From Candidatus Saccharimonadota bacterium (GTDB lineage: Bacteria > Pseudomonadota > Gammaproteobacteria > Johnevansiales > Johnevansiaceae): a DNA stretch of 32,000 nt. A model generated the notes under the pieces. The model made no database searches. It was not told where the DNA came from and saw nothing but the letters and a program-made list of their open reading frames with translations. The stretch spans positions 1-32,000 of the forward strand of contig NC_018677.1 of NCBI RefSeq assembly GCF_000300075.1. The letters run 5' to 3'. Shown piece after piece: positions 11,422 to 30,822 of this stretch (positions within the stretch are counted from its first letter, which is position 1; the number at the start of each line of letters is the position of its first letter). The translations under genes and the position numbers were made by a program.

Positions 11422-14105
11422 TTTATTATTATAATTTTAAAACACATACAAAAAATTTCTAATGGTATTCCTTTAATACCAAACGGAAAACCTATAAACC
11501 CATTACGCATATTATTAGTATTTTTAATTATAATATTTACTTCCTTGTTATTAACAATAGCTTTAATTTTAGATCCTGGAGTTACTTTTAGCAATTTTAT
11601 ATCCTGTTTACTTATTTTTATATAAGGCTTTTTTGTACATTTGTTAATAGAATGTGTTAATGCACTATTTTCTTCACTACCTAATAGATGATATATTGGA
11701 ATAATTTGCCAACGTTTATTTTTTTTAAACCCAACATATTTATAATATGATAAATACTTTTTTTTCTTACAATAATTTATTAACCTAATACCTGGATTGC
11801 CTGCATATAATTTTACACCTATTTCTTTTTGAAATTTATTCCATGCTTGAGGCGAATTCCATCCTGGATACCAAGCAAATGCTATTTCAGAACTATTATA
11901 ACCTTTTGTTGAAAACGTAAAAGTTGAATAAATATCTTTATGAATTTTTTTTTCATGTATTTGAATGTTTGAATTTATAGCAGTGCGTCCACTTAGTCTG
12001 TGAGGTAAACGTGCTAAATTTCTTTTCAATTGTGATAAATTTAATATCCTGTTAAAAGCAGGATGATATTTAGAACATACCTTTAGTACATCATTTAAAT
12101 GTATCCATTCTAACTTACTATTTTTTTTTGCTATAGTTAATGCATGTAACCATCTCCAACTTTCTTTTGTTAAATCTCCAGTACGATAATAACTTGGTTC
12201 ATAAATTTTAAAAAATCTTTGTGCTCTACCTTCATAATTAATTAAAGTACCATTACCTTCCGCTATAGTTGCTGCAGGTAAAACAACATTAGCCTTATCA
12301 ATAGTTGTATTTTTTTTATAATCAATCAAAATAATTTTTTTATTTTTTAATGCATTATAAACTAAAGATGATTTCATACGACGATAAATATTATTTTCTA
12401 AAATGATTACTGCATCTGCTTTATTTTTAATTAGTTTTTTTATTGCCCAATTTAAAGATTTTCCTCCTAACATAGTAACTCCAACACTATTAGAATCATT
12501 ACTATTTAGTATTATAGATCCTTTTTTTCCTAAAAATTTAAATGCACGAGATATATTATAAGCAGATTTTAAAACTAAAGAATGTTTTAGTGAACAACCA
12601 CTAATAATTAATGGTCTTTTTGAGCAACGTAATTTCTTTAAAAGTTTTAATAAAATTTTTTTGTTGTTATTATTAAATGAGTTTAATTTTTTTTTTGGGG
12701 AGTTATGATCTATGGAATTAGCTATTGCAAATCCGAATTTTGTAATTTCTTCTTTAGTACATATAACTGTTTCATAAGCTATAGCATCTAATCTAGTTTT
12801 ATTTGTTGTAAAAATATATATAGGATGTTTATTTTCATTATTAATATTCTTAACATCCCATTCATATATTTTATATTTTTGTGCAATATTAAAAGAACCT
12901 CTTTGAGCAGCTTGTCTTACTGCTAATGCAATTCTTGCTGAAATTTGAGTAATATCTTCACCTAAGATAATGATAAGATCGTGATCTTCAATATCAATTA
13001 TTGAAGAAAAAGGTAAAGCACCTTTATACAAAACATCTATATTTATTTTTAGACACTCTACTTCCCTTTTTTCAATGCCATTAGAAAAATTTTGTTTTCC
13101 AACTAACTTGCATAATGCAAAATTACTTTCTATACTTGCTCTTGGAGAACCTATACCTATAACTCTATTAGATGTATTTAACAAAGCAATACTATAATCA
13201 ATTGCTAAATCTATTGATTTAATAGGATTATTATTTATAAAAGGTATCCGATTACGATTAGAACTATTTATATAACCATAACCAAACCGTCCTCTATCGC
13301 ATATAAAATAATGATTAATTTTACTATTAAACCGATTTTCTATTTTACGAATTTTACCATACCGTTCTCCTACATTTAAATTACAGCCACAAGAACATCC
13401 CGTACAAATGCTTGGAGCATATTGTAAATCCCATTTCCTTGCATAATGCATAGAATATTGTTTATCTGTAAAAACTCCAGTGGGACATATCTCTATTAAA
13501 TTTCCAGAAAATTCATTTTCTAATCTACCATTCCTAAGTCTACCAAAATATATGTTATTACTACTACCAAAAACTCCTAAATCTTTACCACCAGCATAAT
13601 CTTTATAAAATCTTATACACCGATAACACGTAATACATCTATTCATTTCGTGATTTATAAAGGGTCCTAAGTATTGGTTTTTATGAGTTCTTTTATTAAA
13701 ATTATATCTTCTACTATTATGTTTTAGTATCACTGTCATATCTTGTAAATGACACTGTCCACCTTCTTCACATACTGGACAATCATGAGGATGATTAGTC
13801 ATCATTAATTCTATTATTTTAGAACGACAACTAAAACCTTCTGGATCTTTTGTAGTTATAAACTCATTTTTTTTAATTGCTGATGTTGTACAAGCTATAA
13901 CTATCTGTCCTAGTGTATCGTCTCTATTATTGTATCTTTTAATGATACATTGTCTACAAGACCCTACACTTCCTAAAATAGGGTGCCAACAGAAATAAGG
14001 TATGTCTATACCAAAAGATAAACATATTTCTAATAAATTTTTTTTATTTCTATTATTTTTTATTTCATAATCTTTATTGTCTACATTTATTATTGTCATA
14101 ATCAA
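11418..14105 (-). CDS. nuoG: NADH-quinone oxidoreductase subunit G
   Basis: 895-aa ORF. N-terminal Fe-S cysteine clusters (CRQC, HPHDCPVCEEGGQCHLQD, CITCYRCIRF) followed by a molybdopterin-oxidoreductase-like domain. Size matches enterobacterial-type NuoG. Confidence 0.95.
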   Translation of the reverse strand: MIMTIINVDNKDYEIKNNRNKKNLLEICLSFGIDIPYFCWHPILGSVGSCRQCIIKRYNNRDDTLGQIVIACTTSAIKKNEFITTKDPEGFSCRSKIIELMMTNHPHDCPVCEEGGQCHLQDMTVILKHNSRRYNFNKRTHKNQYLGPFINHEMNRCITCYRCIRFYKDYAGGKDLGVFGSSNNIYFGRLRNGRLENEFSGNLIEICPTGVFTDKQYSMHYARKWDLQYAPSICTGCSCGCNLNVGERYGKIRKIENRFNSKINHYFICDRGRFGYGYINSSNRNRIPFINNNPIKSIDLAIDYSIALLNTSNRVIGIGSPRASIESNFALCKLVGKQNFSNGIEKREVECLKINIDVLYKGALPFSSIIDIEDHDLIIILGEDITQISARIALAVRQAAQRGSFNIAQKYKIYEWDVKNINNENKHPIYIFTTNKTRLDAIAYETVICTKEEITKFGFAIANSIDHNSPKKKLNSFNNNNKKILLKLLKKLRCSKRPLIISGCSLKHSLVLKSAYNISRAFKFLGKKGSIILNSNDSNSVGVTMLGGKSLNWAIKKLIKNKADAVIILENNIYRRMKSSLVYNALKNKKIILIDYKKNTTIDKANVVLPAATIAEGNGTLINYEGRAQRFFKIYEPSYYRTGDLTKESWRWLHALTIAKKNSKLEWIHLNDVLKVCSKYHPAFNRILNLSQLKRNLARLPHRLSGRTAINSNIQIHEKKIHKDIYSTFTFSTKGYNSSEIAFAWYPGWNSPQAWNKFQKEIGVKLYAGNPGIRLINYCKKKKYLSYYKYVGFKKNKRWQIIPIYHLLGSEENSALTHSINKCTKKPYIKISKQDIKLLKVTPGSKIKAIVNNKEVNIIIKNTNNMRNGFIGFPFGIKGIPLEIFCMCFKIIIIK

Positions 14106-15407
14106 TTAAACCATTAACTTATCAAAATCATTACGAAAATATTTTATTGCACTAATTAAAGGTTCACTTGCTCCAGGTGCAAGAGCACAAAAAGTTTTTC
14201 CATTTGTTAATTGTTTTGTTAAATCTATCAATATATCTAAATCCTTATATTTACCTTTCTTATTTTCTAAAGTTTTTAATATTTTAACAATCCATGGCAA
14301 GCCTTCACGACACGGAGTGCACCAACCACATGATTCTCTATTAAAAAACTTTTCTATATTTTTTAAGAAATATATTATATTAACAGTATCATCAATAGCT
14401 AATATTATAGCCGTACCTATTCTTGTACCTAGTTTTCTTATTCCATTTGAACACATTTGCACTTTTAAATGTTTAGGTAATAAAATTCCTGTGCTTGCAC
14501 CACCTGGTTGCCAGGCTTTTAATTTATAACCCTTTATCATTCCTCCAGCAAACTCTTCTATTATTTCCATTGCTGTTATACCCATTGGAACTTCCCACAA
14601 TCCAGGATTTTTTACTTTACCTGAACAACCCATAAGTTTTGTTCCATTATCTTCTGATCCAGGTAAACATAACTTCTTATACCAATTAAGACCATAGTTT
14701 ATAATAGAAGGAATATTACATAATGTTTCTACATTATTTATTACTGTAGGTTTTCCCCACGCACCTAGTTGACCAGGAAAAGGCGGTTTTCTTTTTGGAT
14801 TTGCTCTATAACCCTCTAATGAATTAATTAAAGCAGTTTCTTCACCACAAATATATCTTCCAGCTCCTGAATGAACACATATATCAAAACAAAACTCAGA
14901 ATTTAAAATATTTTTTCCTAAAAAGTTTTTTTTACGAGCTTCTTTTATAGCAATATTAATAATATTTATTGCATCAATATATTCTCCTCTTATAAAAATA
15001 TACCCTTTATAAGAATTATTTGCGTAAGCTGCAATTATCATACCTTCTATTAATAAATGAGGTTCTTGTTCTAATAATAATCTGTCTTTATATGTATTAG
15101 GTTCCATTTCATCTGCATTGCATAATAACAAACTTTCTTCATTTGTTAAACTCCATTTTATTCCAGTTATAAAGCCAGCACCTCCTCGACCTTTTAAGCC
15201 TGAATCTTTTATTTCTGTTTTTACCTCTTCTGGTGTTGATTTTTTTAATATACGTTTCACAGCAATATATCCTTCTTTTTGTACGTATTCATTTAACCAT
15301 ATTGTTTTACCTTCTTTATTTAATCGCCAAGTCAATGGATGAGTTTCTTTTGATTTTTTTACTATATTTGCTGTACAAACTGACTTTATGCGTTTATTTA
15401 CAATCAT
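14106..15407 (-). CDS. nuoF: NADH-quinone oxidoreductase subunit F
   Basis: 433-aa ORF. Motifs [25 protein letters not shown] (FMN/NADH site), CNADEMEP, and [12 protein letters not shown] (4Fe-4S). Confidence 0.96.
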
Positions 15408-15912
15408 TTTTATAAATTTCCAAAATATTACTTATATTTTTTTTTATTAATTTAGAATAAAGTTCATTATTTATCATCATATTTGGGGCTTTATCACAAT
15501 TACCTAAGCAACATATAGGCAATAATGTATAACGTTTATCCTTAGTAGTTTCTCCAATACTTATTCCTAACAAAAATTTTAATTGCTTATAAATAAATTC
15601 ATAACCATTTATATAACACGTGATACTATCACATAACAATATTATATTTGTTCCTACTGGTTGTCTGTAAATTAAATTATAAAATGTGGCTATACTATCG
15701 AGTTCCGTTGGAGTTATTCCTATTATCTTTGCAAGATCATTAATAATATTATCAGATATCCATCCTCTATATTTTTGTATTATTTTCAAAGCACCAATTG
15801 AAGCTGCTTTACTATTTTTATAATTGTTTTTTTCAATAATAATTTCTGTAATTTCTTCTTTAGTTAATTTTTTAAACCTTTTAAGGTAACTATTTTCCAT
15901 AATCCATTCCAT
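15394..15912 (-). CDS. nuoE: NADH-quinone oxidoreductase subunit E
   Basis: 172-aa ORF. 2Fe-2S thioredoxin-like motifs ([25 protein letters not shown]). The first 3 codons lie in a pentanucleotide repeat, so the true start may be Met5 at 15900. Confidence 0.9.
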
Positions 15913-15943
15913 TCCATTCTATTCTATTGTATTGTATTGTACT
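15904..15943. repeat. Compound pentanucleotide microsatellite (CCATT)x3 (CTATT)x2 (GTATT)x2 GTACT, filling the nuoCD-nuoE junction
   Basis: Read directly: ccatt ccatt ccatt ctatt ctatt gtatt gtatt gtact. It overlaps the annotated nuoE start codon and touches the nuoCD stop. Confidence 0.9.
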
Positions 15944-17706
15944 TAACGATCTACATCTGCCATTACAAAATCAATACTTGCAATATGTGCTATCATGTCT
16001 GGTATGTACGCTCCTTGCATTATTGTAGACAGATGTTGTAAGTTAGGATAACTAGGTGTTCGTATGCGGGTACGATAACTAGTTGCATTACCATCAGAAA
16101 TTAAATAATAACTATTAAGCCCCTTCGTTGCTTCTATCATTTGAAAATTTTCATTTTGTTCTAATATTGTTCCCCAAGACATTTGTAAAAAATGTGTAAT
16201 TAATGTTTCTATATTCTTTAACATTTTGTTTCTATTAGGAGGTGTAACTAAATGTTGTTCCATTTTTATACTTCCTTCGGGAATATTATTTATACATTGT
16301 TTAATAATTCTTAAACTTTGATACATCTCTTCTATTCTTATATTTGCTCTATCAAACACATCTCCATTTGTACCTATTGGTATATCAAACTCTACTTTAT
16401 CATAACCGGAATAAGGTCTATTTTTTCTTACATCAAAATTTAAACCTGTAGCTCTTAAATTTGGCCCTGTTATTCCCCACTCCAATGCTTCTTTAGTATT
16501 ATAAGATGCAATAAATTTAGTACGTTTTCGTAATATGTAATTATTCATCATTGCCTTATTATATTCTTTAAGCCTTTTATTTATCCATTTTATAAAGTTC
16601 TTGATTAATTTATACCAACCTTTTGGCAAATCATGAGCCAATCCTCCAATACGAAACCAAGCAGGGTGCATACGAAAACCCGTTATAGATTCGATTATTT
16701 CATAACATTTTTGCCTATCTGTAAACGTAAAAAACACTGTACTCATAGCACCTAAATCTTGTAAAAAAGTACCTAAAAACAGCATATGCGAATTTATTCT
16801 AAATATTTCCATCATCATAACACGTATTATTTTTGTTCTTTCGGTAACTTGTATCTTTGCGATTTTTTCAATTGCTAATATATAAGGTAAATTATTTATT
16901 ACGCCACCTGTATAATCAATTCTATCAGTGTAAGGTAAATAACTATGCCATGCTTGTCTTTCTCCCATTTTTTCTGCTCCACGATGATGATAACCTATGT
17001 CTGGCATACACTTTTCTATTTTTTCTCCACAAAGCTGCATTATTATTCTAAAAGCTCCATGTGCAGAAGGATGATTCGGTCCAAAGTTTAAAAACATATT
17101 ATTTTTCTTATTTGAAAGTCCCCATTCGTCAGGAATTAAACATAATGAGTTTTGTTCTTTATATTGCTTATATCTATTTATTTTTAAAACTTTAAATTCA
17201 GTTGCACGTGATGGATAATCTTTACGCAATGGATAGCCTTTCCAATTTAAAGGCATTAATACTCTTCTTAAGTTTGGATGGCCATAAAATTTAATTCCAA
17301 ACATATCATAAACTTCGCGTTCATACCAGTTTGCATTCTGCCAAATTTTGACAATTGATGGTATTACTAAGTTTGGTTCTATTACCGCTACTTTTATTAT
17401 TAAATCCTTATTATCTTTTATTGACAACAAATGGTAAACCACTGTAAAATCTGCCTTTGGTAAATTTTTTCTGTTATTTCTTAATCTTTCATCTATGCAA
17501 TGTAAGTCATATAACATGTCTATTTTATATTGTTTGTTTCCATTACGTAAATATTTTATTATATCAAACATTTTATTTTTTTTTACCCATACAACAGGTA
17601 TTCCCATTAAAGTCTTTTGTGAATACAAAATGTTTTTTTTTCCAAATTTTTTATATAATATTTTTAAAACCATTTGTTCTTGTTTTCTTACTTGTTTATT
17701 AAACAT
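15943..17706 (-). CDS. nuoC: NADH-quinone oxidoreductase fused subunit C/D
   Basis: NuoC motifs ([24 protein letters not shown]) are fused to NuoD motifs ([28 protein letters not shown]-terminal [10 protein letters not shown]). The longest ORF runs to 17778 but then overlaps nuoB by 80 nt. I place the start at Met25 (17706, an 8-nt overlap); Met36 (17673) is also possible. Confidence 0.9.
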
Positions 17707-18358
17707 TCTTTTGTGTGCGTAATTTTTTTGTTTTAATACGCTTAATATATTTTTTTTGTTTTTGATTTGGCATATCATATCTATAAATCTTCTGATCCCC
17801 TATTATCCAAGATAAAGGCCGTCTTTCTTTATGTATTGATTTTTGTAACAATTGTATTCCTTGTAAAAAAGCTTCCGGTCTAGGTGGACACCCTGCTACA
17901 TAAACATCTACAGGTAATATTTTATCTACCCCTTGTACAACTGAATAACTATCATACATTCCACCTGAATTTGCACAAGAACCCATTGAAATTACCCATT
18001 TTGGATCTAACATTTGATCATATAAATGCTGTATTACTGGAATCATTTTGATAAAACAAGTTCCCGCAATTACCATTAAATCTGCTTGCCTAGGTGATGA
18101 TCTAATAACTTCAGCTCCAAATCTAGATATGTCATGTGGTGATGTAAAGGAAGTTGTCATTTCTACATAACAACAGGATAATCCAAAATTAAAAGGCCAT
18201 AAAGAATTTTTACGCCCCCAATTAATTAATAACTTTGAAAGTTTTTTAAGTTTACATAACCAAATATTGTTTCTTAGTTGCTCAAAGTTTTTATCTTTCT
18301 CTCTAGTGGTTTTTTTAAAATCTAAGTTATTTAATATGTATTTCATTGTTTTCTCCAT
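17699..18358 (-). CDS. nuoB: NADH-quinone oxidoreductase subunit B
   Basis: 219-aa ORF. Motifs [21 protein letters not shown] and GCPPRPEA (N2 cluster ligands). An alternative start at Met5 (18346) is preceded by GGAG. Confidence 0.95.
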
Positions 18359-18364
18359 TTAAAG

Positions 18365-18706
18365 TTACTCAAACACTCCATTACATACATCATATATTAA
18401 ACCTACTAATAATATAATAATAAATAAAACTATTTCTATAAAACCTTGCCATCCAATCTCTCTAATTGCACTTGCCCAGCTAAATAAATAAATCGCTTCT
18501 AAATCAAATATTACAAATAATATGGCTAAAATATAAAATTTTGCAAAATAATTAATTTTTTTTATTGAATTTATAGAAATTATTCCTGATTCAAAAGGTA
18601 TTTCTTTGTTAGGCGACCAACTATATCCCCCTAAAATATATGATATTATGCTTATCATTACTAAAATTAATAAGGTGATAATTAAAAAATTCAACAATTT
18701 ATTCAT
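18365..18706 (-). CDS. nuoA: NADH-quinone oxidoreductase subunit A
   Basis: 113-aa, three-helix membrane ORF at the head of the operon. NuoA-like core (FESGI, FVIFDLEAIYLFSWA). Confidence 0.88.
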   Translation of the reverse strand: MNKLLNFLIITLLILVMISIISYILGGYSWSPNKEIPFESGIISINSIKKINYFAKFYILAILFVIFDLEAIYLFSWASAIREIGWQGFIEIVLFIIILLVGLIYDVCNGVFE

Positions 18707-18885
18707 ATCTATATTAATCTCTTTTTTTTTCTATTGATTGTTTTTTATTAGTTAGATCTTTAGAATTTGTATGTAAGATGATGTTTGTTGCTTTTATTTT
18801 TAATTAGAGATTAGAGACTTGAGTTTTTGTTTAAAGTTTTTTGTTTTGAGTTTTGTGGTTTGAGTTTTAAGATTAGAGTTTGTAT

Positions 18886-18947
18886 GTTAGAGGCTAGTTT
18901 AAAGAGTTTTGTTGTTAGAGGCTAGTTTAAAGAGTTTTGTTGTTAGA
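18886..18947 (+). repeat. 28-bp tandem repeat, 2 exact units plus a partial third (GTTAGAGGCTAGTTTAAAGAGTTTTGTT)
   Basis: Units at 18886-18913 and 18914-18941 are identical; GTTAGA restarts at 18942. Confidence 0.9.
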
Positions 18948-18958
18948 TGTGTTTGAAA

Positions 18959-19014
18959 GCTTGTAGCTTGTAGCTTGTAGCTTGTATGTTGTAGAATGTA
19001 GAATGTAGAATTTA
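18959..19014 (+). repeat. Compound heptanucleotide array: (GCTTGTA)x4, TGTTGTA, (GAATGTA)x2, GAATTTA
   Basis: Read directly with strict 7-bp phase across 8 units. Confidence 0.9.
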
Positions 19015-19144
19015 GATGTATGGTATTTTATGGTTTGTGTGTTGCAGTTTTGTGTTATGTGTTAAAGTTATGATTAAACGGTAGAAAGGGTTAAAAAAAA
19101 TAGACTAATGTTTAAATAAGGATGTATGGAAAAACAGATTAGTC

Positions 19145-19468
19145 TTAAATATTATTTACTTTAGTTAATAAATTAGTTAATAACATATAATTTATTGTTT
19201 TAAAAATGTATTTGCTTATATAAAAACATAAATAGACTTGAATAAAATTATAGTTAAATATTCTTATATATTCTTTTAATAATCTTTTTAAAATATTACG
19301 ATAATTTGCTTTGTTTATTATCTTAGTTATAAAAGCTTTATATATTATCGAAGTTTCATTAGTTATAAAAAAACCAACACAAAAAAAATGCTTGTTGATT
19401 GCTTTAAAATTATAAGCTTTATTGATGGTTTTATGAACATTAAAAGGTTTAATTACTTTATAATTCAT
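19145..19468 (-). CDS. rnpA: Ribonuclease P protein component
   Basis: 107-aa basic ORF with an RNR-type motif (KANYRNILKRLLKEYIR). Its start overlaps the rpmH stop (TAATG), matching the conserved rpmH-rnpA pair. Confidence 0.85.
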   Translation of the reverse strand: MNYKVIKPFNVHKTINKAYNFKAINKHFFCVGFFITNETSIIYKAFITKIINKANYRNILKRLLKEYIRIFNYNFIQVYLCFYISKYIFKTINYMLLTNLLTKVNNI

Positions 19469-19602
19469 TATTTACAAAGTATGTTACGTTTTTTTTTTCT
19501 ACGATTTGAAATAATTCTTCTTCCAATCTTAGTACTCATCCGTCTTCTAAAACCATTAACACGTTTTATTTTTATTTTACTAGGTTGAAAAGTTCGTTTC
19601 AT
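19468..19602 (-). CDS. rpmH: 50S ribosomal protein L34
   Basis: Not in the ORF track (44 aa). My hand translation of the minus strand gives [44 protein letters not shown], the canonical L34 sequence pattern. Confidence 0.93.
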
Positions 19603-19608
19603 GAATAT

Positions 19609-19614
19609 CTCCTT
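19609..19614 (-). promoter_or_regulatory. Shine-Dalgarno AAGGAG for rpmH
   Basis: The + strand reads ctcctt, which is AAGGAG on the minus strand, 6 nt upstream of the rpmH ATG. Confidence 0.55.
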
Positions 19615-21210
19615 TATTTATTTTCTTTAGTATTAATCTATATACTGAACCGGCAAATTTAAATTATATTTAAACCACCAACTAGTTTCTTTTCTTCTGT
19701 ACCTTAATACTAATTGATATAAATGTACCTTAATACTTAACGAAAGAACTAGATACTTATTTAAGTTACTACTTTCTTTTTAACAAACCTTTGTTTTTTT
19801 AAACCCAAAGACTATACCTTTAATAAAAAGCATCAATTTAAACAAACCCAATTTTATGTTTCTATAACCACTACAATTTAACAATACTTCAACAATACTA
19901 TATCTCTCTTTTTATTTACAATTTAAATTATCAATTGTTTACTAATCAACAAAATACTTACAACTATTTATTAACAACACTGTAATCTCATCTAAACACA
20001 TTAATCCCTTACTCTACTGTTTTATTTTTTTTACTTGTTGATTCGTTGCTAAATGTTGCTTATTTTTTTATTTATGTTCTGTTTTAGATTATTTTGTTTT
20101 TGCTGTATTATTTACTTGTTTAATTGCGTTGAGCTCTCTATGTTTTACCATCGAAATGGTATACTTCTTGTTTTTTTTGTTTTATGTTTATTAATTTATG
20201 CTTTATGTGTTTTGATTTTTGTATTTTGTGTTATTTTTACTCTGCTTAGTTTGTCCTGTTGTTATATTGCTTGTTATTTTTTTTTTATTTTATTATGTGT
20301 ATATTGTTTATGTGACCGTAAACTTTCTATTTTATTACCGTTATACAAGTTTAAACTTTTCAATTTTTGTTAGCTTTTTAAAATGTTCTTATGTATTAAA
20401 GCGTCTTTATTTACCATATATGTTATATTGTTACTGTATTATCTTTTCTGATTTTGTGTAGTTGTAGTTATGGTTTATGGTTTGTGGTTTTTGGTTTTTG
20501 GTTTTGTACCTGTGTTTTCTGTTATCATTTAGCACTTATGTTTTTTTTTTGTTTGACAATTTTTGTGTTTTCTGGTTTCTATTTTTTTTCTGCTTATTAT
20601 TTTCTTCTCTTTTATTTTGTTGTATTTTTGTATCAGTGTCTTTATGTTTTGTTTAGTTGTGTTTGAAAAAAATACTATCGGTTATTTAAATATGTTATAT
20701 GTTTATTAGTAAGGATAAAAGTGAAAGCTGTTATATGCTGCTTAAATTAGATGTTAGATGAGATTTTAAGATGTTAGATATTTGATGGATTGTTTTTAAG
20801 AGGTTTGCTGTTAATTATTGTTTTTAAGAGGTTTGTGGTTGGAAGATATGTTTTTATCTGTTAGTTATTAGAGGTTTGTTGTTTTTATGTTAGAGTTTAG
20901 AAAGTTTCTGGTTAGAGGAATTTTTGTTTAAAGTTGTTGTTTGATGTGTTTTTTTTAGAGGTTATTTTTTAGTTTATTGTTTTTTTGTTGTTAGTTTTAT
21001 GTTTTTTCTGATGTTTGTTGCTTTTATTGTTAATTAGAGATTAGAGTTTGGTTTTATGTTTTTGCTTTTGAGTTTTTATGTTTATGTTTATATTTTGTTT
21101 TGTTTAAAGTTTATTTATTAGATGTTGTTGTTTAGAGGTTTAGATGTTGGTGTTTTTAGATGTTAGATTGTTTTTTTATCTTTTAGAGGTTATATTATTA
21201 TTTTTTATGT

Positions 21211-21238
21211 TTTGATGTTTGATGTTTGATGTTGTATG
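21211..21238 (+). repeat. Heptanucleotide array (TTTGATG)x3 plus TTGTATG
   Basis: Read directly: tttgatg tttgatg tttgatg ttgtatg. Confidence 0.88.
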
Positions 21239-21645
21239 TTGTTTAAAACAGTTAAATTGTTAGTCTGTTATTTGAAAATTTATTATATGTTATTTGTTTA
21301 GATGTTTAGATGTTATTTGTTGTTTAATTATATTATTTTTAAGAATTTATGTTAAATGTTAAATGTTGTACTATTAATAAATTAGAGGTTATATTAGATT
21401 TTAGTTTTGTACGAAATTTGATTGAATGATTTTTGAGGTTGTATGTTAGAGTTTTATTTTATTTTTGTATGTATCTATATTATTAGAGGTTAATAGTTGT
21501 GTAATGTAACAGAGTTTGTATACCTGCTTTTCTTTTACAACAACAATAAGAACTAACACCATTTGTATGTTGCATTATTTATTTATTAGATGTTGATTTT
21601 TTGTTGTTTTGTTAAACTGTTTGCTGTTATGCTTTGTTTTATTAA

Positions 21646-21680
21646 TTAGAGATTAGAGATTAGAGATTAGTAGTTAGTTG
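21646..21680 (+). repeat. Heptanucleotide array (TTAGAGA)x3, then TTAGTAG and TTAGTTG
   Basis: Read directly. The same TTAGAGATTAGAG unit recurs at 18811, 21041 and 29054. Confidence 0.88.
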
Positions 21681-22252
21681 TTAATAGAAGTTATAAGTTG
21701 TAAGTTATTTTTTTATTTTAATGTGTTGTAGTTTAAACATGAACATGATCATGATGTACGCTATTACATGATAAGAAACGTGTTACTTGTGTTATATAAC
21801 TAAGTAATACATACAAATGTAAGTTTGTTAGATAATATACAGTAGGCAGTAGGTTTAGTGTGTATAAATGTGTAAAGTTGTCATCAATGTGTTGTGTTAA
21901 CAGAATTATTGTTTTGATATTTGGTGTGTTGAAGGATATGTTGTTTAAAAGATAATAAAAGTTGTAGAAGAAAAAGGAGATATGTTAGTTTGAATTATAG
22001 GAAGGGGTTTGTTGTTTTGGGTTTGATAGAAACTGTGTAAATCGAAAGTCTGGGTTATGGGTCAACAGGTGTATAGTAAATATAAAATGTAAATACGTTA
22101 AAAGAGAAGTTAGGTTGGTTATTAAAGGAGGTTTGTTAAAGTATTTGTGTATAAGGTTAAAATTGTGTTATTTGAGTAGTTTGTTAAATTGTTTTGTGTG
22201 TGTGTATATGTATGGGGTAGGTTTTTGAGAAAGAAAAGAGTTGTATATTTAT

Positions 22253-22266
22253 GGGGTGGGGTGGGG
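22253..22266 (+). repeat. G-run microsatellite GGGGTGGGGTGGGG
   Basis: Read directly. A fourth GGGG lies at 22214-22217 and a (TG)6 run at about 22195-22206. Confidence 0.9.
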
Positions 22267-22845
22267 TTACTATACGATTGGAAAGTAATAGGATTATAGG
22301 TTTGATGGAAGACAAAATAATGGACAAGTATTTGTTAATAGTTACTTAACTTAAAAAAGAGTTTATGAAATGGTAATAAAGATGTATAAATGGTGAAGAA
22401 GGATGTTAGTATAAGTAAATAATGAAGATTAAAAAAGTCAAAAGGTAATAAACTAAAAAAAAAAGAAGAATCATATTTATAAAAAAAAATGAGTTATTAA
22501 AAAGTAAAGAGATAAAACAAAAATTGTTTAAACGGTTACACAGAAATTTTATAAATATATACTAAACTAAAGAAATAAATCAAGCAAATCACAAACGTGA
22601 TAAAAAATATAATATAAATTACTCAGGGTAATAAAACTTAGTTTTAAGGGATAGTTGTTAATAGATGTCTTTATCAAGATGTGATAGAAACAAATTCTAT
22701 ATATACTTTATATAATAAATATAATAGTTGATTATGAAAAAAAACTATAAATAACAAAAGACTAAATTTCTTTATAACAAGGAATAATTATTTTAATAGA
22801 TTGTAATAAAAGCATAAGGTTTATTTAAAATGTTTATAATTTTTT

Positions 22846-25068
22846 ATGTATGATTCATCCAAGATTAAGATCTTAAAAGGTTTAGATCCTGTAAAAAAAA
22901 GACCAGGAATGTATATAGGCAATACAGATGATGGTACTGGTTTGCACCACATGTTATTTGAACTTATTGATAATTCTATTGATGAATATTTAGCAGGTTT
23001 CTGTACAACTATTAGAATACAAATTATAAAGTATAAGATACTAACAATTGAAGATAATGGAAGAGGAATACCTATAGATACTCACTCATTCGGCATATCA
23101 GCTGCAGAGATAATTATGACTATATTACATGCAGGAGGAAAATTTGATAATGATTCTTATAACTTTTCTGGCGGTTTACATGGTGTAGGTTTATCGGTAG
23201 TAAATGCTTTATCTGAATTTATGAAATTATATATTTATAGAAAAAATAAATCTTATAAACAACTATATTTAAATGGAATACCAACAACGCCTTTAAAAAC
23301 AATTGGAAGAACAAAAAAAAACGGTACCAAAATAAGTTTTAAACCTTCAACAAAAATTTTTATAAATAGCAGTTTAAATTACAATATAATCTATAAAAGA
23401 TTACAAGAAATGTCTTTTTTAAATAAGAAATTAAAAATCGTTTTAATAAATAACGAAAAACAAATAGTATTGTATAATGAAGGTGGAATTAAGACGTTTG
23501 TTGCAAAACTTAATAATCATAAAACTAATATATGCCCAATTTTTTATTTACATTCAAAAAAAACAAATATGCTTATAGAAGTAGCAGTTCAATGGAATAA
23601 TTCATTTACAGAATTAGTTAAATGTTACACAAATAATATACCACAAACTGACGGTGGAACTCATTTGTTTGGTTTTCGCACAGCTTTAACAAAAGTTATT
23701 AAAACGTATATTAAAAAGGAAAACATAAAGAATAACTATTCTATAAATAGTGATGATATAAAGGAAGGAATAACTGCAATTATAGCTATTAAAATGCAAA
23801 ACCCAAAATTTTCTTCACAAACAAAAAATAAATTAATATCATCAGAAATAAAAATAGCGGTAGAAAACGAATTAAACAAAACATTTTATCTTTATTTATT
23901 AGAGCATCCTAAAGAGTCAAAAAACCTTATAAATAAATTTATTAATTCCGCAAAAATACGAGAATCTTCTCGTAAAGCAAGAAATGTTGCTAGAAAAAGA
24001 CTAGCTTTAGATGTTGCTAAATTGCCGGGTAAATTATCTGATTGTCAAGAAAAAAATCCAAAAAAATCGGAATTATATATCGTAGAGGGCGATTCTGCTG
24101 GTGGATCAGCTAAGCAAGGAAGAGACAGACGTATACAAGCAGTTTTAGCTTTAAAAGGAAAAATAATTAATGTAGAAAAATCAGGGTTTGAAAAAATATT
24201 TGTATCAAATGAAATAGTCACGTTAATAACGGCATTAGGTTGTGGAATAGGACAAAAAGAATTTGATATAAAAAATTTACGTTATCATACAATTATAATT
24301 ATGACAGATGCAGATGTAGATGGTTCACATATAAGAACATTATTATTAGCATTTTTTTTTAGATATATGCCTAAACTAATTGAAAATGGTTATGTATATA
24401 TTGCACAACCACCTTTGTTTAAAATTAAACATATAAAAAAAGACATATATATAAACAATGAAAAAGATCTACATAAACATACACTTAAAATATGCTTAAA
24501 AGAAAAACAACTTCTAAGCAATAAAAAATATATAAGTATAAAGAAATTACTGTTGAAGTATATAAGTGTTTATAATATTTCAAACAAAAGAAAAAAAAGT
24601 GATTTAAAATTAGAAAAAAATTATTTAAATGATGCTTATTATCTAAATAAGTTTTATTCTTTCTATTTTTATTTAAATAAATTGGTATTATCATCTAATA
24701 TCTATTACGTGTTAATAAGCTTTAAAAAACAACTAAACAAATTAAATAATTTTAATGATAAGATTAATTTATTCTTTAATAAAAAGATATTTAAAAGTTT
24801 TTATAAACTCTATGATTTAATACAACTTATATTTTACAAATTGTTCTATAAAAGTTTTTATATACAGAGATATAAAGGGTTAGGAGAAATGAATCCTAAT
24901 CAATTATGGGAAACATCAATGAACCCCTTTAAACGAATATTATTCAAAATGATAATTAAAGACGTTTGTAAAGCAAATTTACTTTTTAATATATTAATGG
25001 GTGAGAGCGTTAAACCTAGAAGACACTTTATCCAAAATAATGCGTTACTTGCTAATATAGATCTTTAG
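22846..25068 (+). CDS. gyrB: DNA gyrase subunit B
   Basis: 740-aa ORF. Motifs YDSSKIKILKGLDPVKKRPGMYIG, LHHMLFELIDNSIDE, GGLHGVG, YIVEGDSAGGSAKQGRDR, IMTDADVDGSHIRTLLL and QRYKGLGEMNP. Residues about 545-660 are low-complexity K/N/Y/F/L sequence. Confidence 0.96.
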   Translation: MYDSSKIKILKGLDPVKKRPGMYIGNTDDGTGLHHMLFELIDNSIDEYLAGFCTTIRIQIIKYKILTIEDNGRGIPIDTHSFGISAAEIIMTILHAGGKFDNDSYNFSGGLHGVGLSVVNALSEFMKLYIYRKNKSYKQLYLNGIPTTPLKTIGRTKKNGTKISFKPSTKIFINSSLNYNIIYKRLQEMSFLNKKLKIVLINNEKQIVLYNEGGIKTFVAKLNNHKTNICPIFYLHSKKTNMLIEVAVQWNNSFTELVKCYTNNIPQTDGGTHLFGFRTALTKVIKTYIKKENIKNNYSINSDDIKEGITAIIAIKMQNPKFSSQTKNKLISSEIKIAVENELNKTFYLYLLEHPKESKNLINKFINSAKIRESSRKARNVARKRLALDVAKLPGKLSDCQEKNPKKSELYIVEGDSAGGSAKQGRDRRIQAVLALKGKIINVEKSGFEKIFVSNEIVTLITALGCGIGQKEFDIKNLRYHTIIIMTDADVDGSHIRTLLLAFFFRYMPKLIENGYVYIAQPPLFKIKHIKKDIYINNEKDLHKHTLKICLKEKQLLSNKKYISIKKLLLKYISVYNISNKRKKSDLKLEKNYLNDAYYLNKFYSFYFYLNKLVLSSNIYYVLISFKKQLNKLNNFNDKINLFFNKKIFKSFYKLYDLIQLIFYKLFYKSFYIQRYKGLGEMNPNQLWETSMNPFKRILFKMIIKDVCKANLLFNILMGESVKPRRHFIQNNALLANIDL

Positions 25069-25700: not shown

Positions 25701-25774
25701 AGGCCTATAGCTCAATAGGTAAGAGCAGAGGACTCATAATCCTTGTGTTGTAGGTTCAAGTCCTACTAGGCCTA
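25701..25774 (+). tRNA. tRNA with CAU anticodon (elongator Met or lysidine-type Ile2; not initiator)
   Basis: Manual cloverleaf: acceptor AGGCCTA/TAGGCCT, D-arm GCTC-AATAGGTAA-GAGC, anticodon arm GAGGA-CTCATAA-TCCTT, variable loop GTGTT, T-arm GTAGG-TTCAAGT-CCTAC, discriminator A, no encoded CCA. It lacks the initiator features (1:72 mismatch, GGG/CCC anticodon stem). The AGGC... start and GTTCAAGTCC T-arm resemble E. coli ileX-type tRNA. Confidence 0.9.
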
Positions 25775-27695
25775 TAAAATCAGAAAGTCGGATAAAGATA
25801 TTAAATATAGTTAATAAGATTAAAATGTTGTTTTTAGTTACATTAATATTATTCTGAAAAATTTGAAGAGCTTTTATATATGCGTTAAATTTAGTATGTA
25901 GCGTATAACTTATATAAAAAATATCTTTGTAGTTACAATTACCGTTACTTAGTAACTTATTATAGGTTTGTTTAAAAAATAATATTGAATTAAATAATTT
26001 ATATTCTGCATTTGTTTTTAAATGTCTTATATTAACTGTCTTTTTTAAAAAGCAATTATGTTTATATTTTTTTTTAAATTGTTTTATAAAGTTATTTATT
26101 CTTTTATTAATTTCTATTATTTTGTAAATAAACGTATTATTAGTTAATAAATAATTAATTATATAACTCCGTCTAAACAAATCATAAGGACAATAACTTG
26201 TATGTTGTATAGAACCAAAACTTGTTTTATAGATATGTATTTTGTAAGTTATAATTAATAGTTTGTCTGTTATAAAACATATTATGTCCTTTACAAAATG
26301 ATTAAGTTTTAAAAAACAGTTGTACTGAGAAAAGGAATACAGAATCAAAAACCATAAATCTAAATTATATTCATTTAAAATAATAAGTTTTAATATTATA
26401 TAAGCTAATCTTCTTGTAAAGAAAATATCCTTACTATTATTAAATTTATAACCCAAATAAAAAAAACCTATTAAATCGTCTATTTTATTTGATAGGGATA
26501 AAGATATACCTTCTTTTGTATAAGGTAAAATATTTATATATTGATTTGGTAAATATTGTTGATACAATGTTTTATAGATTTCAAGTTTCTCTTTATTTAT
26601 ATAGCAATAATAAGATCCAATTAATCCTTTAAATAAGTTAAACTCATTAACAAAGTATGTAAGGAAATCACATTTTGCTAAATATCCAGCTCTAATAGTA
26701 ATGTAAACATTTCCACCTATATATTGTACATATTTTTTTAAAATGGTAATAATTCTACGAGTTTTATCAGCTAAAGTACCTAAGTTATATTGAAAAATTA
26801 CTAATTCTAAATCTTTAAAACGTTCATATAAATTTCTTTTTAAATCATATAGTACCAAACATAAAATATCATAAAAACAAATGTTTATATTCATTTCATA
26901 AAAAGTTATTAATTTTTTTTTATTTAAAGTATTTACATTTACAATAACAATGTATTTATTTGTTATAATGTTTTTTTTATTTAATAAAAGAAACCCTTTT
27001 TGTTTAAAATTAATAATAAAGATTGTTATTTCCTTCGGAAAATTTTTAAATATTTTATTAAAGTTTATAACTATCGCTACGGGCCACTCAACTAAATGAG
27101 TAATAAATCTTAATAGGACTTGATCTATACTTACGACTAAATTATGTTTATTAGAATTATATAAAATCATATGTCTAATTATTTCACATCTATAATTTAA
27201 TTTAACAAGTACATAACCAGGATACTTTACTTTTAATAAGTATTCATTACTATTTTTTAGTTTTATATATTTTTTACAATGTATTATATGACCATAAGTT
27301 TTTCTATTAGACAACATATTAAATAATTTAATGTTTATTATCTTTTTATTAAATAACAAAATAAACCATGTTATAGGACGTATAAACTTTTTTGACTTTT
27401 GTCCCCATCTCATTTGTTGTAATGCTGATATCTTTGTTAAAAAGATTTTTATAGCAATTTTAAGTATATGTTTTAATTTATTAACCAAAACTTTGTGTAT
27501 ACTGTCTATATGTATGGCAATACGTCTAGCTGTTGTAAAAACATTTATTGTATTAAAATAAAAATTTTCTTTATTTTGTTTATAGGTATATGTTCTGAAT
27601 TTTTGGTTTAAAATTCTTATAATATTGTTGATGATAATTTCATTAGCTTTTATAGGTAAGTTTTCAAAACCAACTTCAATAAATAAATTATTCAT
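25734..27695 (-). CDS. glyS: Glycine--tRNA ligase beta subunit
   Basis: 653-aa ORF, 8-nt overlap with the glyQ stop. GlyS-like blocks: VGFENLP, MRWG, LVEWPVAIV, LGTLADKTRRI, RAGYLAKCDFLT. The last ~10 residues (VGLEPTTQGL) are antisense to the tRNA gene. Confidence 0.9.
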   Translation of the reverse strand: MNNLFIEVGFENLPIKANEIIINNIIRILNQKFRTYTYKQNKENFYFNTINVFTTARRIAIHIDSIHKVLVNKLKHILKIAIKIFLTKISALQQMRWGQKSKKFIRPITWFILLFNKKIINIKLFNMLSNRKTYGHIIHCKKYIKLKNSNEYLLKVKYPGYVLVKLNYRCEIIRHMILYNSNKHNLVVSIDQVLLRFITHLVEWPVAIVINFNKIFKNFPKEITIFIINFKQKGFLLLNKKNIITNKYIVIVNVNTLNKKKLITFYEMNINICFYDILCLVLYDLKRNLYERFKDLELVIFQYNLGTLADKTRRIITILKKYVQYIGGNVYITIRAGYLAKCDFLTYFVNEFNLFKGLIGSYYCYINKEKLEIYKTLYQQYLPNQYINILPYTKEGISLSLSNKIDDLIGFFYLGYKFNNSKDIFFTRRLAYIILKLIILNEYNLDLWFLILYSFSQYNCFLKLNHFVKDIICFITDKLLIITYKIHIYKTSFGSIQHTSYCPYDLFRRSYIINYLLTNNTFIYKIIEINKRINNFIKQFKKKYKHNCFLKKTVNIRHLKTNAEYKLFNSILFFKQTYNKLLSNGNCNYKDIFYISYTLHTKFNAYIKALQIFQNNINVTKNNILILLTIFNIFIRLSDFIGLVGLEPTTQGL

Positions 27696-28551: not shown

Positions 28552-28748
28552 TCTACTTGTTTTCAGTTTATATTTTTTTTATAGGTATTTTTTTATATTA
28601 GTGTTTTTTTTTTTAACTTTCAATTCTTTTTTTTTAACTAATTCTTTGTTTTATTATTTTTCTATGTTTATTGCTATTTGCTTTAGATCTTTGCTTTTGT
28701 TGTTTTTATAGTTATTTTTAGCTGTTTTTTATTATTTGCCTTTGATAT

Positions 28749-28814
28749 TTGCTCTTGCTCTTGCTTTTGCTCTTGCTCTTGCTCTTGCTCTTGCTCTTGT
28801 TATTGTTATTGTTT
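28749..28814 (+). repeat. Compound hexanucleotide microsatellite (TTGCTC)x8 (one TTGCTT variant), (TTGTTA)x2, TTGTTT
   Basis: Read directly. It generates the spurious poly-Leu ORF 28749..28940. Confidence 0.92.
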
Positions 28815-29007
28815 TATGCATTATATGTTTTGTTAAAATTAATAGTTGTATTAGATAATAGCAGTAGTAAAAAGTTGCAATTGATGTTAGCTCTTGTTTA
28901 TTATATGTTAGTTTTGGCTGTTAGTTTGTATTGGTTATAGGCTGTTTGTTAAGTTATTAATTGTTAGAGGTTATGTTGTAGTTTGAAAAATTCAGCTTTC
29001 AGAATTC

Positions 29008-29035
29008 AGCTGTTAGCTGTTAGCTGTTAGCTGTT
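29008..29035 (+). repeat. Heptanucleotide array (AGCTGTT)x4
   Basis: Read directly: agctgtt x4, followed by agttt. Confidence 0.9.
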
Positions 29036-29491
29036 AGTTTAAAGATGTTGCTTTTTAGAGATTAGAGATTATACTGTTTGCTTGAATTGTTTATTAGAGG
29101 TTTTAGGAATTGTTTTGTTTGTTTGTTAGTTGTTATTTATTAGAGGTTTATTTATTTTGGAGGTTGTATGTTAGAGTTTTTATATGTTTTATTTGATTTT
29201 TTATATTCTATGTTTTTTTTGCTTTCTTTGTTCTTCTCTTTTTAGTATTTTGTATGTTTTTTTCTGTATATTGTTTTGTTTTTATCTGTACTATAGTTAA
29301 GCCTTGTATAAACTCTTTCGTCTTTTTCTATTGTCTTTAGTATTATGTATAGCAATACTACTATATTGTGTATGTTTAAATTTTAGATATTGTAGGCATT
29401 ATGTTGTATTTTAGATATTTAGTTATTTGAGGTTTGAGGTTTTGTTAATTTTGTTAGTTAGAGGAAGTAGGATGTTATTATGTTGGATAGA

Positions 29492-29519
29492 GCTTGTAGC
29501 TTGTATGTTGTAGGTTGTA
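29492..29519 (+). repeat. Heptanucleotide array (GCTTGTA)x2, TGTTGTA, GGTTGTA
   Basis: Read directly. The first 22 nt are identical to 18973-18994 in a different spacer. Confidence 0.9.
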
Positions 29520-29592
29520 GGAAAGTATTGGCTAAAAAGATTAAAGCTTTTTGAGGTTATATTGTTAGTCTGTTAGAGGATTTGTTTTAAAA

Positions 29593-29615
29593 TTAGAGGT
29601 TAGAGGTTAGAGGTT
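29593..29615 (+). repeat. Heptanucleotide array (TTAGAGG)x3
   Basis: Read directly: ttagagg ttagagg ttagagg tt. This is the tandem form of the dispersed TTAGAGGTT motif. Confidence 0.92.
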
Positions 29616-30608
29616 ATTTGTAATTTGTTGTTGATAAAAGTTTTATGTTTGATATTGCTTTTTGTGTTAGCTGTAATTAATGTTTGATATTCTGTGTTAA
29701 CAGGATAAATGCACGATGTTATAGGAATTGAATTAAAGTTAGCTGTTATAAAGTTTATGGGTTATGAGTAAGGTGTATTTGTGTTAGTAGTTAGGTAAGA
29801 AGTTGTTAAAGTAAGGTAGTAGAGGTAGGTTGTTAAATAAGTAAAAGTGTGTTATGTAAAGAAAAAAATAGATTTAGATGATTTGTGGAAGCTGTTAAAT
29901 AAATTAGTGAAATGCTAAATGTGTGTAATTGGATAGGTTAATGTGGTAAAAAAGGTTTGTAGGTTAGACTAGAACGTGTTAAAGGAAAAAAGAGAGAAGA
30001 AATTGTGGTTAGGGGTTGTATAAAGTTTTTTTTATAGGAAAAAGGGTGTGTATAATTATGGTTTTATGAGGTGTTTGTAAGAAGTAATATAAGAAAGGTA
30101 AAGAGAAAAAAAGAAATGTAGTATAAAAGAAAAAAGGGTTTGTATAATAATGGTTAAATGCTGTGTTAGGTAAAAGAGAGATATTTGTTTTTGGTAGAGT
30201 GATGAGAAGGTTAGTTAAAATGTATTAGATGTTGTTTTGTTTAACATTTGTGGTAAAAAATAGATGAGTAGTTAAAAGATAACTGATAGATGTGGTATAT
30301 ATATGAATTGTTTTAAAGTTAAGTACATAAAATTATTAATTGTTAATGGTATTAGGGGTATGCGTTTTGTTGAATATGTCTTATTAACTTAATTAAAGGT
30401 TAAATTTTAGCTTAGATGTTTTATTTGTCTATTATTTAGCGATAACAGGCATTATTGAGTTATTTTCGGTATAGGTAAAGTAAATGTATAATCATATTAA
30501 AAATATAAATTAGATGTTATGATTAATAGTTGATTAAATAGAATATAGATAGAGTGGTGTTATTGGTATTAATGGAATAATAGTAAGATTAGTATACAGG
30601 TTATATGT

Positions 30609-30708: not shown

Positions 30709-30822
30709 AAAAAAAGTAAAGATATTCGGCAATATAAGTTTAAAAAAACAAGTAAAGTCGTACAGTTTTACTAATAGAATAAAATTAAAATCATAAAATA
30801 AACAAAAAAAAAAGAAATAAAT

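Follow-up and report, generated by a model that had tools for sequence, protein, structure and literature searches.

The rpmH-gyrB locus of Candidatus Portiera aleyrodidarum, the endosymbiont of the whitefly Bemisia tabaci, raises the question of what the long stretch without genes between these two genes is and how it arose. The locus lies in a 32-kb stretch of this bacterium's DNA, called the window here. The gene rpmH (ribosomal protein L34, 44 aa, 19468..19602, - strand) matches Pfam Ribosomal_L34 with 58.9 bits and is assigned PF00468 in the NCBI assembly. It is adjoined, as in all Portiera relatives, by an ORF for the RNase P protein, rnpA (107 aa, 19145..19468, - strand), whose match to Pfam Ribonuclease_P is weak (18.9 bits, below the cut-off of 22.3). 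On the other side, gyrB (740 aa, 22846..25068, + strand) encodes HATPase_c, DNA_gyraseB, Toprim, and DNA_gyraseB_C domains. The gap between the divergent rpmH and gyrB, 19603-22845, is exactly 3243 bp long. A sequence-only reading of this DNA had described the two genes as divergent and as separated by 3243 bp without a gene, and scans for ORFs, Pfam families, tRNAs, and Rfam families agree with that description. The longest ORFs in the gap are of 106, 80, and 70 aa, and all lie inside the T-rich segment 20053-20666. Neither the 106-aa nor the 80-aa ORF has a Pfam match, and in two other Portiera genomes from B. tabaci a stop interrupts the former. A tRNA scan of the gap found none, an Rfam scan matched no family, and the NCBI assembly annotation calls zero genes inside it. 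A sigma-70 promoter scan gave 19 sites against 26.4 expected. The same GyrB and the same 3243-bp gap, base for base, are found in CP016304.1 (Ca. Portiera aleyrodidarum), and two independent Logan assemblies also carry a base-identical gap. Thus, an assembly artefact is ruled out. In two further B. tabaci Portiera genomes, the identity of the gap is 98%.

What the slot once contained can be seen in AD-CAI (L002), L089, and L090, three Portiera lineages that keep the ancestral order of genes. These have yidC-rnpA-rpmH on the - strand and then dnaN-gyrB on the + strand. Their rpmH-gyrB slot measures 1217-1264 bp, including an intact dnaN of 1146 bp, with spacers of 56-66 bp between rpmH and dnaN and 5-11 bp between dnaN and gyrB. 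In the Portiera ancestor, rpmH therefore adjoined dnaN-gyrB, and the slot measured about 1.22 kb. In all 26 loci that were fetched from gammaproteobacteria other than Portiera, the order is dnaA-dnaN-recF-gyrB. In E. coli K-12, rnpA-rpmH is divergent from dnaA-dnaN-recF-gyrB, as the sequence-only reading had stated. From these orders, a deep ancestor possessed the dnaA-dnaN-recF-gyrB block. Portiera resembles this canonical block in that rpmH and gyrB are still divergent and that dnaN formerly lay between them. It differs in that the slot of its ancestor was already without dnaA and recF, and dnaN, the sole survivor there, is a relic in the window. Since dnaN stands alone in the slot of the three ancestral-order lineages, dnaA and recF had been deleted cleanly before the last common ancestor of Portiera. 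No dnaA is present in the slot of any Portiera examined, and the portions of the Portiera literature that were searched do not mention dnaA and make no statement either way.

It had been proposed that all three genes, dnaA, dnaN, and recF, decayed in situ, their 3.6 kb being reduced to the present 3.2 kb. The deep ancestor did have the three genes, and the two lengths are similar, but this history is hardly credible. The 1.22-kb slot of the ancestral-order lineages contains dnaN alone and leaves no room for remains of dnaA or recF beside it, and none were found. Profile HMMs of DnaA and RecF score within the shuffle null on the six-frame translation of the gap, and the interior of the gap carries a 7-nt repeat signature rather than decayed coding sequence. 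In addition, the slot ranges from 1595 to 3243 bp among related lineages. The sister lineage L088 has 1595 bp here, and other B. tabaci strains have 3219 and 3225 bp, so the agreement with the length of three genes, once taken as a sign of their decay, is a coincidence. The proposal thus fails for dnaA and recF, given the slots of the relatives, and survives for dnaN, which has left a relic of its 3' end beside gyrB.

This relic lies at 22522..22828 (+ strand) and corresponds to about nt 835-1146 of the 1146-nt gene, as placed by an nhmmer profile and by alignment. It ends at the former stop codon, 17 nt upstream of gyrB. The profile, built from three intact Portiera dnaN genes, matched 22606-22807 to profile positions 926-1130 with 24.1 bits (E 8.5e-8 for the whole 32-kb window). 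This was the sole strong match in the 32 kb, with a runner-up of 7.4 bits, and 300 block-shuffles of the gap reached at most 3.3 bits. Aligned with intact dnaN, the relic is 62-65% identical overall and 67-71% identical in its core. Its position and strand are those of dnaN in L002, L089, and L090. L088 (32.6 bits) and SiSi (14.8 bits) share this block, which an inversion has split in SiSi. When 22505-22715 of the window was aligned with 8793-9014 of L088, the score was 96, the null being 40.6 +/- 4.8. The reading frame of the relic is destroyed, and none of the ORFs extends across it. On these sequence comparisons, dnaN has ceased to encode a protein in the Bemisia-type lineage and decayed in place, with about 300 nt of its 3' end persisting beside gyrB.

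Only the DNA-level profile found the relic; protein searches did not. HMMs were built for DnaA, DnaN, and RecF from 41, 52, and 28 sequences plus E. coli, together with a DnaN HMM from Portiera only. On six-frame translations of the gaps of the window, L088, and SiSi, they gave about 3 bits or less, which is within the shuffle null. The DnaN protein HMMs scored at or below 0 bits on the gap, against 400.9 bits for the intact AD-CAI gene in the same pipeline, a control that checks the pipeline only, since that gene was probably among the sequences used to build the profile. In tblastn, DnaN of AD-CAI gave scattered matches in the window that were driven by composition, and none were left with composition correction. 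Two weak collinear tblastn matches at 22473-22791 were real in hindsight. Of the checks that had been suggested, TBLASTN and profile-HMM searches of the gap for DnaA, DnaN, and RecF therefore gave no protein-level match. Comparison with relatives was productive, as it revealed the intact dnaN in the slot and allowed a DNA profile to recover the 3' relic.

The other end of the gap is less informative. The left flank, 19603..20010 (no strand assigned), is G-poor, C/A/T-rich, and non-repetitive, and it includes the upstream region of rpmH. Tandem Repeats Finder (TRF) covers 0% of it, and 7-nt periodicity is absent. Its homologue in L088 is the left-hand 410 bp of the slot, with a global score of 65 against a shuffle null of 39.1 +/- 5.5; non-syntenic A/C-rich controls score at most 31 in this comparison. 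The 5' relic of dnaN is significant in L088 and SiSi, where 0 of 300 shuffles reach its score. For the window, 199-258 of 300 shuffles do so, and the agreement in the alignment is positional only. The 5' end of dnaN in the window can thus be placed provisionally, solely via L088 and by position, and the former ATG start would be the CTG that now stands at 19645-19647. L088 has CTG here too, and SiSi has ATT. Past the first ~40 nt, the left flank has no similarity to dnaN. Segment 19645-20010 gave z <= 1 against each third of dnaN, and the ~330 bp at 19680-20010 match no part of the gene. A profile of the left flanks of the window and L088 found nothing better than E 8.9 in the intact slots.

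Between these two old ends lies the interior expansion, about 2.4 kb at 20011..22400 (+ strand), which is delimited by 7-nt periodicity, TRF cover, and indels between strains. It is T-rich at 20011-20700, G/T-rich and depleted in C at 20701-21500, and G/A/T-rich at 21501-22400, and its GC skew reaches up to +1.0 per 100 nt. Its units are degenerate 7-nt sequences (TTAGAGG, TTAGATG, TGGTTTT, and ATTAGAG) and their multiples. Lag 7 tops the autocorrelation of the whole gap (z = 5.7) and of each of the three interior sub-segments. The gap had been described as laden with repeats. This is correct in that TRF covers 21% of it, most commonly with period 7, against 1-5% of the flanking genes. The repeats are uneven, however, with cover of 28% in the interior and 1.3% at 22401-22845, so that practically all of them lie within 20011-22400. 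Of the TTAGAGG copies in the window, 29 of 30 are on the + strand. For the strand asymmetry of this new DNA and for its lineage-specific heptamer, the account is descriptive. Neither L088 nor the ancestral-order lineages have a counterpart of the interior.

A comparison of three Portiera genomes from B. tabaci gave 16 indels. All were in tandem arrays of the interior, most were of 5-18 bp, and seven were of exactly 7 bp. These genomes differ by 1.8-2.1% in the gap and by 0.2% in gyrB, and growth of the gap is still under way among B. tabaci Portiera strains. Some 2.4 kb of DNA with 7-nt periodicity was thus inserted between two old ends, which brought the slot to 3.24 kb, and the dead dnaN is swollen nearly threefold by 7-base slippage repeats. 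That slippage repeats overran the slot had already been suggested from the sequence, and the period, the repeat cover, and the 7-bp strain indels bear this out. A net gain of about 2 kb over the ancestral slot could also come from foreign or mobile DNA inserted there. This origin of the extra DNA is most improbable, since scans of the gap gave neither a family match for an ORF nor an Rfam or tRNA gene, terminal inverted repeats and long dispersed repeats are absent, and the composition and heptamer content are those of the genome's other spacers.

The strand asymmetry of the gap is also the basis for regarding it as an element that functions in replication. The change from C-rich to G-rich DNA at ~20010, beside rpmH, would then be an origin that works independently of DnaA, and the repeats would record fork direction. 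The cumulative GC skew of the window has its minimum at ~17.5-20.5 kb, the GC skew flips from -0.8 to positive at ~20000, and TTAGAGG has the strand bias given above. In many gammaproteobacteria outside the enterics, oriC adjoins rpmH and dnaA. However, the GC skew of four-fold degenerate sites follows the coding strand (+0.21 in + genes, +0.13 in - genes), and its replication-strand component is only ~0.04. The L088 slot is A/C-rich throughout, spacer polarity alternates along the collinear region, and in B. tabaci Portiera the first spacer past the window is A/C-rich and has its heptamer on the opposite strand. DnaA boxes (TTATCCACA-like, with at most one mismatch) number 11 in the window, where 11.35 are expected, and two of these are in the gap. 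The ancestral rpmH-dnaN spacer, at 56-66 bp, is too short for an inherited oriC. A replication element is therefore unlikely. The same low probability applies to the fuller version in which the ~2.4 kb would have been created de novo inside the dead gene by strand-polar amplification of the TTAGAGG heptamer family, background mutational skew being insufficient, with the polarity switch at ~20010 as the origin. Replication skew as the main explanation was ruled out by the four-fold-site skews and the mosaic polarity of the spacers. Should heptamer polarity follow the fork across the whole genome, the direction of replication would be preserved in the spacers like a fossil record. The switch at ~20010 would, if this were true, be the origin of a chromosome that is copied without DnaA, sliding clamp, clamp loader, and proofreading.

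The sister lineage L088 has the same relic of dnaN, but growth there affected another point and had the reverse strand polarity. In L088, DNA that is A/C-rich on the + strand was added 3' of the relic core, and in the window G/T-rich DNA was added 5' of the relic. Thus, the slot of the sister lineage grew independently of that of B. tabaci Portiera. A lenient blastn of the two gaps gave dozens of minus-strand matches, which are purely compositional (G/T-rich against A/C-rich). The neighbouring spacer between glyQ and ilvA has grown without the loss of a gene, from 93-209 bp (L089 and L090) to 1318 bp (L088) and 2271 bp (the window), so gene decay is not required for growth.

Taken together, the gap is very probably a dead dnaN gene inflated from within. 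Its DNA is most probably non-functional, except at the two ends, where the promoters and leaders of rpmH and gyrB lie. Following Sloan and Moran (2013), uncorrected replication slippage or template switching may drive the expansion. Slippage could go uncorrected because the lineage lost dnaN, dnaX/holA/holB, dnaQ, mutL, and ssb, and its deletion bias would be gone. The link between gene loss and slippage is correlative. Portiera BT is reported to have lost dnaN, dnaQ, dnaX, holA, holB, mutL, ruvC, and ssb (PMC3673631; PMC5322561; PMC12911140). Of these, dnaN encodes the clamp, dnaX, holA, and holB the clamp loader, dnaQ serves in proofreading, and mutL in mismatch repair (PMC3673631). Its intergenic regions are described as large, with a spike at 7 bp in both repeats and indels (PMC3673631; PMC5322561; PMC12911140). 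A loss of dnaN had seemed surprising, but it is real and has been in print since 2013 (PMC3673631 Table 3; PMC5322561 Table 2; PMC12911140 Table 2). A protein-database search listed no Portiera-type DnaN from contigs of 349-359 kb, a list that also missed the DnaN of L090. From the three papers and this non-exhaustive list, dnaN appears to be absent elsewhere in the genome.

The gap is one of the expanded spacers of Portiera BT, the same phenomenon in the same organism (Sloan and Moran 2013, PMC3673631; Santos-Garcia et al. 2015, PMC5322561; 2020, PMC7821994). It is in a Portiera genome from the B. tabaci complex, has 3243 bp in place of 1217-1264 bp, and contains 7-bp repeats and an excess of 7-bp indels. 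Since dnaN loss and spacers of 7-bp repeats were published between 2013 and 2026, the core finding is already known. In the text searched, these papers treat dnaN as simply lost and do not report a surviving 3' end beside gyrB. Repeats inside the former gene, the growth of opposite polarity in L088, and TTAGAGG as the dominant heptamer are likewise absent from that text. The relic of dnaN and the growth inside it are therefore small additions. With the central facts in print, the value lies in detail and in the correction of the three-gene reading, not in discovery. Candidatus Tremblaya princeps, which PMC3673631 compares with Portiera BT, is likewise an obligate endosymbiont with low gene density and large non-coding stretches. 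Growth with a 7-nt period and a strand-polar, G/T-rich composition are shown here for the B. tabaci Portiera lineage alone.

The textbook exception to the genome stasis of endosymbionts is B. tabaci Portiera, whose genome grew despite the loss of clamp, clamp loader, proofreading, and mismatch repair. At this locus, a replication gene died in situ and was then stretched by the slippage that its loss is thought to promote. L088 stretched the same dead gene differently, which makes the locus a dated and alignable example of a net gain of DNA by a bacterium.

The 32-kb window (G+C ~25%) carries dnaK, dnaJ, the nuoN-nuoA operon (-), rnpA (-), rpmH (-), gyrB (+), tRNA-Met, glyS and glyQ (both -) and the start of ilvA (+), set apart by several long non-coding spacers. 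Candidatus Portiera aleyrodidarum CP016304.1 (352-kb chromosome, from Bemisia tabaci) encodes an identical GyrB. The rpmH gene (Pfam L34, 58.9 bits) extends up to 19602 and gyrB begins at 22846, which leaves a gap of exactly 3243 bp (19603-22845). This gap is the same base for base in CP016304.1 and in two independent Logan assemblies. The NCBI record has no gene calls in it, and tRNA and Rfam scans of the gap found none. The longest ORFs in the gap, of 106, 80, and 70 aa, all lie within a stretch of ~60% T. The first two have no Pfam match, and in two other B. tabaci Portiera genomes an internal stop codon interrupts the 106-aa ORF. Tandem-repeat arrays take up 21% of the gap versus 1-5% of the neighbouring genes. 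Thus, the gap is repeat-laden and non-coding, as the sequence-only reading had described it.

Two genes downstream of the gap have features of their own. The tRNA-Met (25701-25774 (+)) and the glyS ORF (25734-27695 (-)) share the final 41 nt of the latter, so that the C-terminus of GlyS is encoded antisense to the tRNA. In Portiera with the ancestral order, the gyrB-glyS spacer is 33-41 bp and no tRNA lies in between. In CP016343.1, glyS is called as two pieces of 584 and 44 aa. Portiera GyrB proteins have 737-754 aa (window gyrB, 22846-25068) versus ~805 aa in Halomonadaceae relatives. They have no precomputed match to PF18053 or PF21249, both of which are listed for Halomonadaceae GyrB. An internal region of Portiera GyrB has apparently been lost.

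Relatives were gathered by a one-genome-per-species scan and protein look-ups. Three Portiera lineages, AD-CAI, a Logan contig (L089), and LR744089.1, share the order atp operon-mnmG-mnmE-yidC-rnpA-rpmH (-), dnaN-gyrB (+), glyS-glyQ (-), ilvA. The rpmH-dnaN spacer is 56-66 bp and the dnaN-gyrB spacer 5-11 bp; from rpmH to gyrB, the interval totals 1217-1264 bp. Neither dnaA nor recF is present in the slot in these three lineages. The order dnaA-dnaN-recF-gyrB was found in 26 non-Portiera gammaproteobacterial loci of the same scan, and E. coli has the full canonical block, unlike the Portiera slot with dnaN alone. Since dnaN stands alone in the three ancestral-order slots, dnaA and recF had already been removed, along with their DNA, when the sampled Portiera last shared an ancestor. 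Of the trio, the Bemisia lineage had only dnaN left to lose. The 3.2-kb gap had been likened to the combined 3.6 kb of dnaA, dnaN, and recF; this argument fails because the ancestral slot held only dnaN.

The TBLASTN and profile-HMM searches proposed in the sequence-only reading gave no remains at the protein level. With AD-CAI DnaN as the query, tblastn found nothing after composition correction. The DnaA, DnaN, and RecF HMMs scored ≤0 bits against the six-frame translation, within the shuffle null. The intact AD-CAI gene scored 400.9 bits in the same pipeline, a value that serves as a pipeline check only, since this gene is probably in the profile's own building set. At the DNA level, a relic was found. 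An nhmmer profile of 1146 positions, built from the intact dnaN genes of the three Portiera lineages and searched against both strands of the 32 kb, matched 22606-22807 (+) at profile positions 926-1130 (24.1 bits, E 8.5e-8). The second-best match anywhere in the 32 kb had 7.4 bits, and none of 300 block-shuffled versions of the gap scored above 3.3 bits. In an alignment with intact dnaN, similarity runs from ~22522 to the former stop TAA at 22826-22828, 17 nt upstream of the gyrB ATG. The aligned part is 62-65% identical to intact genes overall and 67-71% identical in its core, where the clamp has its conserved GFNVDYLIDVLNVIE stretch. This relic beside gyrB shows that dnaN decayed in place. 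Decay in place had been proposed for all three genes; it holds for dnaN and not for dnaA and recF.

The gap has three parts. The left flank (19603-20010) is poor in G and free of tandem repeats and 7-nt periodicity. Its homologue in a sister Bemisia-type lineage, L088, is the 410 bp at the left end of the corresponding gap (global score 65, shuffle null 39.1 +/- 5.5; non-syntenic A/C-rich controls ≤31). The rpmH-dnaN spacer and first dnaN codons are significantly matched by the initial ~85-100 nt in L088 and in the Portiera of Singhiella simplex (0/300 shuffles reach the score). The window's own left end has no significant match to them in the shuffle test. Alignment puts the old dnaN start codon at 19645-19647, which is now CTG, as in L088, and is ATT in S. 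simplex Portiera. No match to any part of dnaN was found in the other ~330 bp of the flank. The interior (20011-22400) has its top autocorrelation at lag 7 in every sub-segment, TRF cover of 28% and GC skew of up to +1.0 per 100 nt. The right flank (22401-22845) is A-rich like Portiera coding strands, has no periodicity and carries the dnaN relic.

Slippage repeats were said to have filled the slot, and for the interior this is borne out by its periodicity, its repeat cover, and its indels. The gap is 3243, 3219, and 3225 bp long in three B. tabaci Portiera genomes that are 97.9-99.0% identical across it. All 16 indels among them fall in interior arrays, seven with a length of exactly 7 bp and the rest of 1, 5, 6, 12, or 18 bp. 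The 7-bp spike in indels and repeats that Sloan and Moran (PMC3673631) reported genome-wide is seen again here at one locus. When each of the other two genomes is compared with the window, substitutions amount to 1.8-2.1% in the gap and 0.2% in gyrB. The glyQ-ilvA spacer is 93-209 bp in L089 and LR744089.1, 1318 bp in L088 and 2271 bp in the window (28552-30822), and never has a gene in between. It is pure net gain of DNA. Therefore, the size of a Bemisia-type spacer tells nothing of what was replaced. This spacer also contains a 50-bp unit repeated 2.2 times (30604-30713). A 38-nt stretch (TGATGTTTGTTGCTTTTATT.TTAATTAGAGATTAGAG) is common to the nuoA-rnpA spacer (18779-18816) and the rpmH-gyrB gap (21009-21046), 37/38 in direct orientation, which suggests sequence exchange or a common origin of both spacers.

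L088 comes from a metagenome, and the GyrB encoded on this contig is 77% identical to that of the window. Its gene order is the same, including a ~10-kb inversion that places the nuo operon beside rnpA. Relative to L089 and LR744089.1, the rnpA...fpr block (~10 kb ancestrally) is inverted in the window (4376-19602), with nuoA beside rnpA. As it is shared with L088, this inversion is older than the divergence of the two Bemisia-type lineages. Between rpmH and gyrB, L088 has a gap of 1595 bp, in which dnaN positions 859-1067 (32.6 bits) survive in a block ~960 bp upstream of gyrB. This block aligns to window 22505-22715 (score 96, null 40.6 +/- 4.8). An A/C-rich expansion has been inserted between it and the final few tens of nucleotides of the old dnaN. 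S. simplex Portiera has its rpmH-rnpA pair in inverted orientation. The 5' end of dnaN (positions 4-83) moved with rpmH (8846-8932 (-) of its locus L001) and the 3' end (996-1140) was kept by gyrB (9829-9983 (+) of L001); therefore, the breakpoint lies inside the dead gene.

Strand asymmetry is extreme in the spacers of the window and L088, which are made of G/T-rich DNA with hardly any C or of its complement. In the gap interior, the + strand has almost no C. The window contains 30 copies of the heptamer TTAGAGG versus 2.7 expected, with 29/30 on the + strand. Nearly all copies are in the four large spacers (2986-4375, 18707-19144, 19603-22845, and 28552-30822), at 3461-3825, 18887-18921, 20868-21489, and 28964-29613. 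It is absent from the L088 spacers and is not mentioned in the main text of the paper that reported the 7-bp spike (Sloan and Moran, 2013). The next B. tabaci spacer past the window is A/C-rich and has TTAGAGG on the other strand (L081, the record holding it, 21014 and 21260). L088 spacers alternate between G/T-rich and A/C-rich, and its rpmH-gyrB gap is A/C-rich throughout. Polarity is a mosaic along collinear regions in both lineages. GC skew at four-fold degenerate sites tracks the coding strand (+0.21 for + genes, +0.13 for - genes), with a replication-strand component of ~0.04. Given this skew and the mosaic polarity, the asymmetry is therefore a property of the sequence that was amplified and not of general mutation pressure. 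For the same reasons, the composition switch at ~20010 is poor evidence for a replication origin. DnaA boxes in the window show no excess over chance.

Loss of dnaN is on record. Portiera of B. tabaci lacks dnaN, dnaQ, dnaX, holA, holB, mutL, ruvC, and ssb (PMC3673631 Table 3; PMC5322561 Table 2), and has large repetitive intergenic regions and rearrangements (PMC3673631; PMC5322561). dnaN is also lost in Portiera of S. simplex (10.1101/2020.06.17.158493) and of Bemisia afer (PMC12911140 Table 2). A protein search with AD-CAI DnaN agrees with its absence from B. tabaci Portiera. Among the matches listed there were four Portiera-type clusters, followed by a drop to 40% identity. None of the Portiera-type matches listed came from a 349-359-kb contig, in a list that also omits the LR744089.1 DnaN and is thus non-exhaustive. 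The latter protein (8793-9995 of L090, the LR744089.1 locus) is intact at 400 aa, has no Pfam match on record and carries in-frame repeat insertions, (HKE)5 and KLKLKQEEE. These are microsatellite growth inside a replication gene that is still open.

Decay in the slot thus concerns one gene and not three, and most of the 3.2 kb is new repeat DNA, not what is left of an old gene. The core of the finding was already known. The additions are modest: a surviving 3' relic of dnaN, an expansion placed between the old ends of that gene, an independent and oppositely polarised counterpart expansion in the sister lineage, and the TTAGAGG heptamer.
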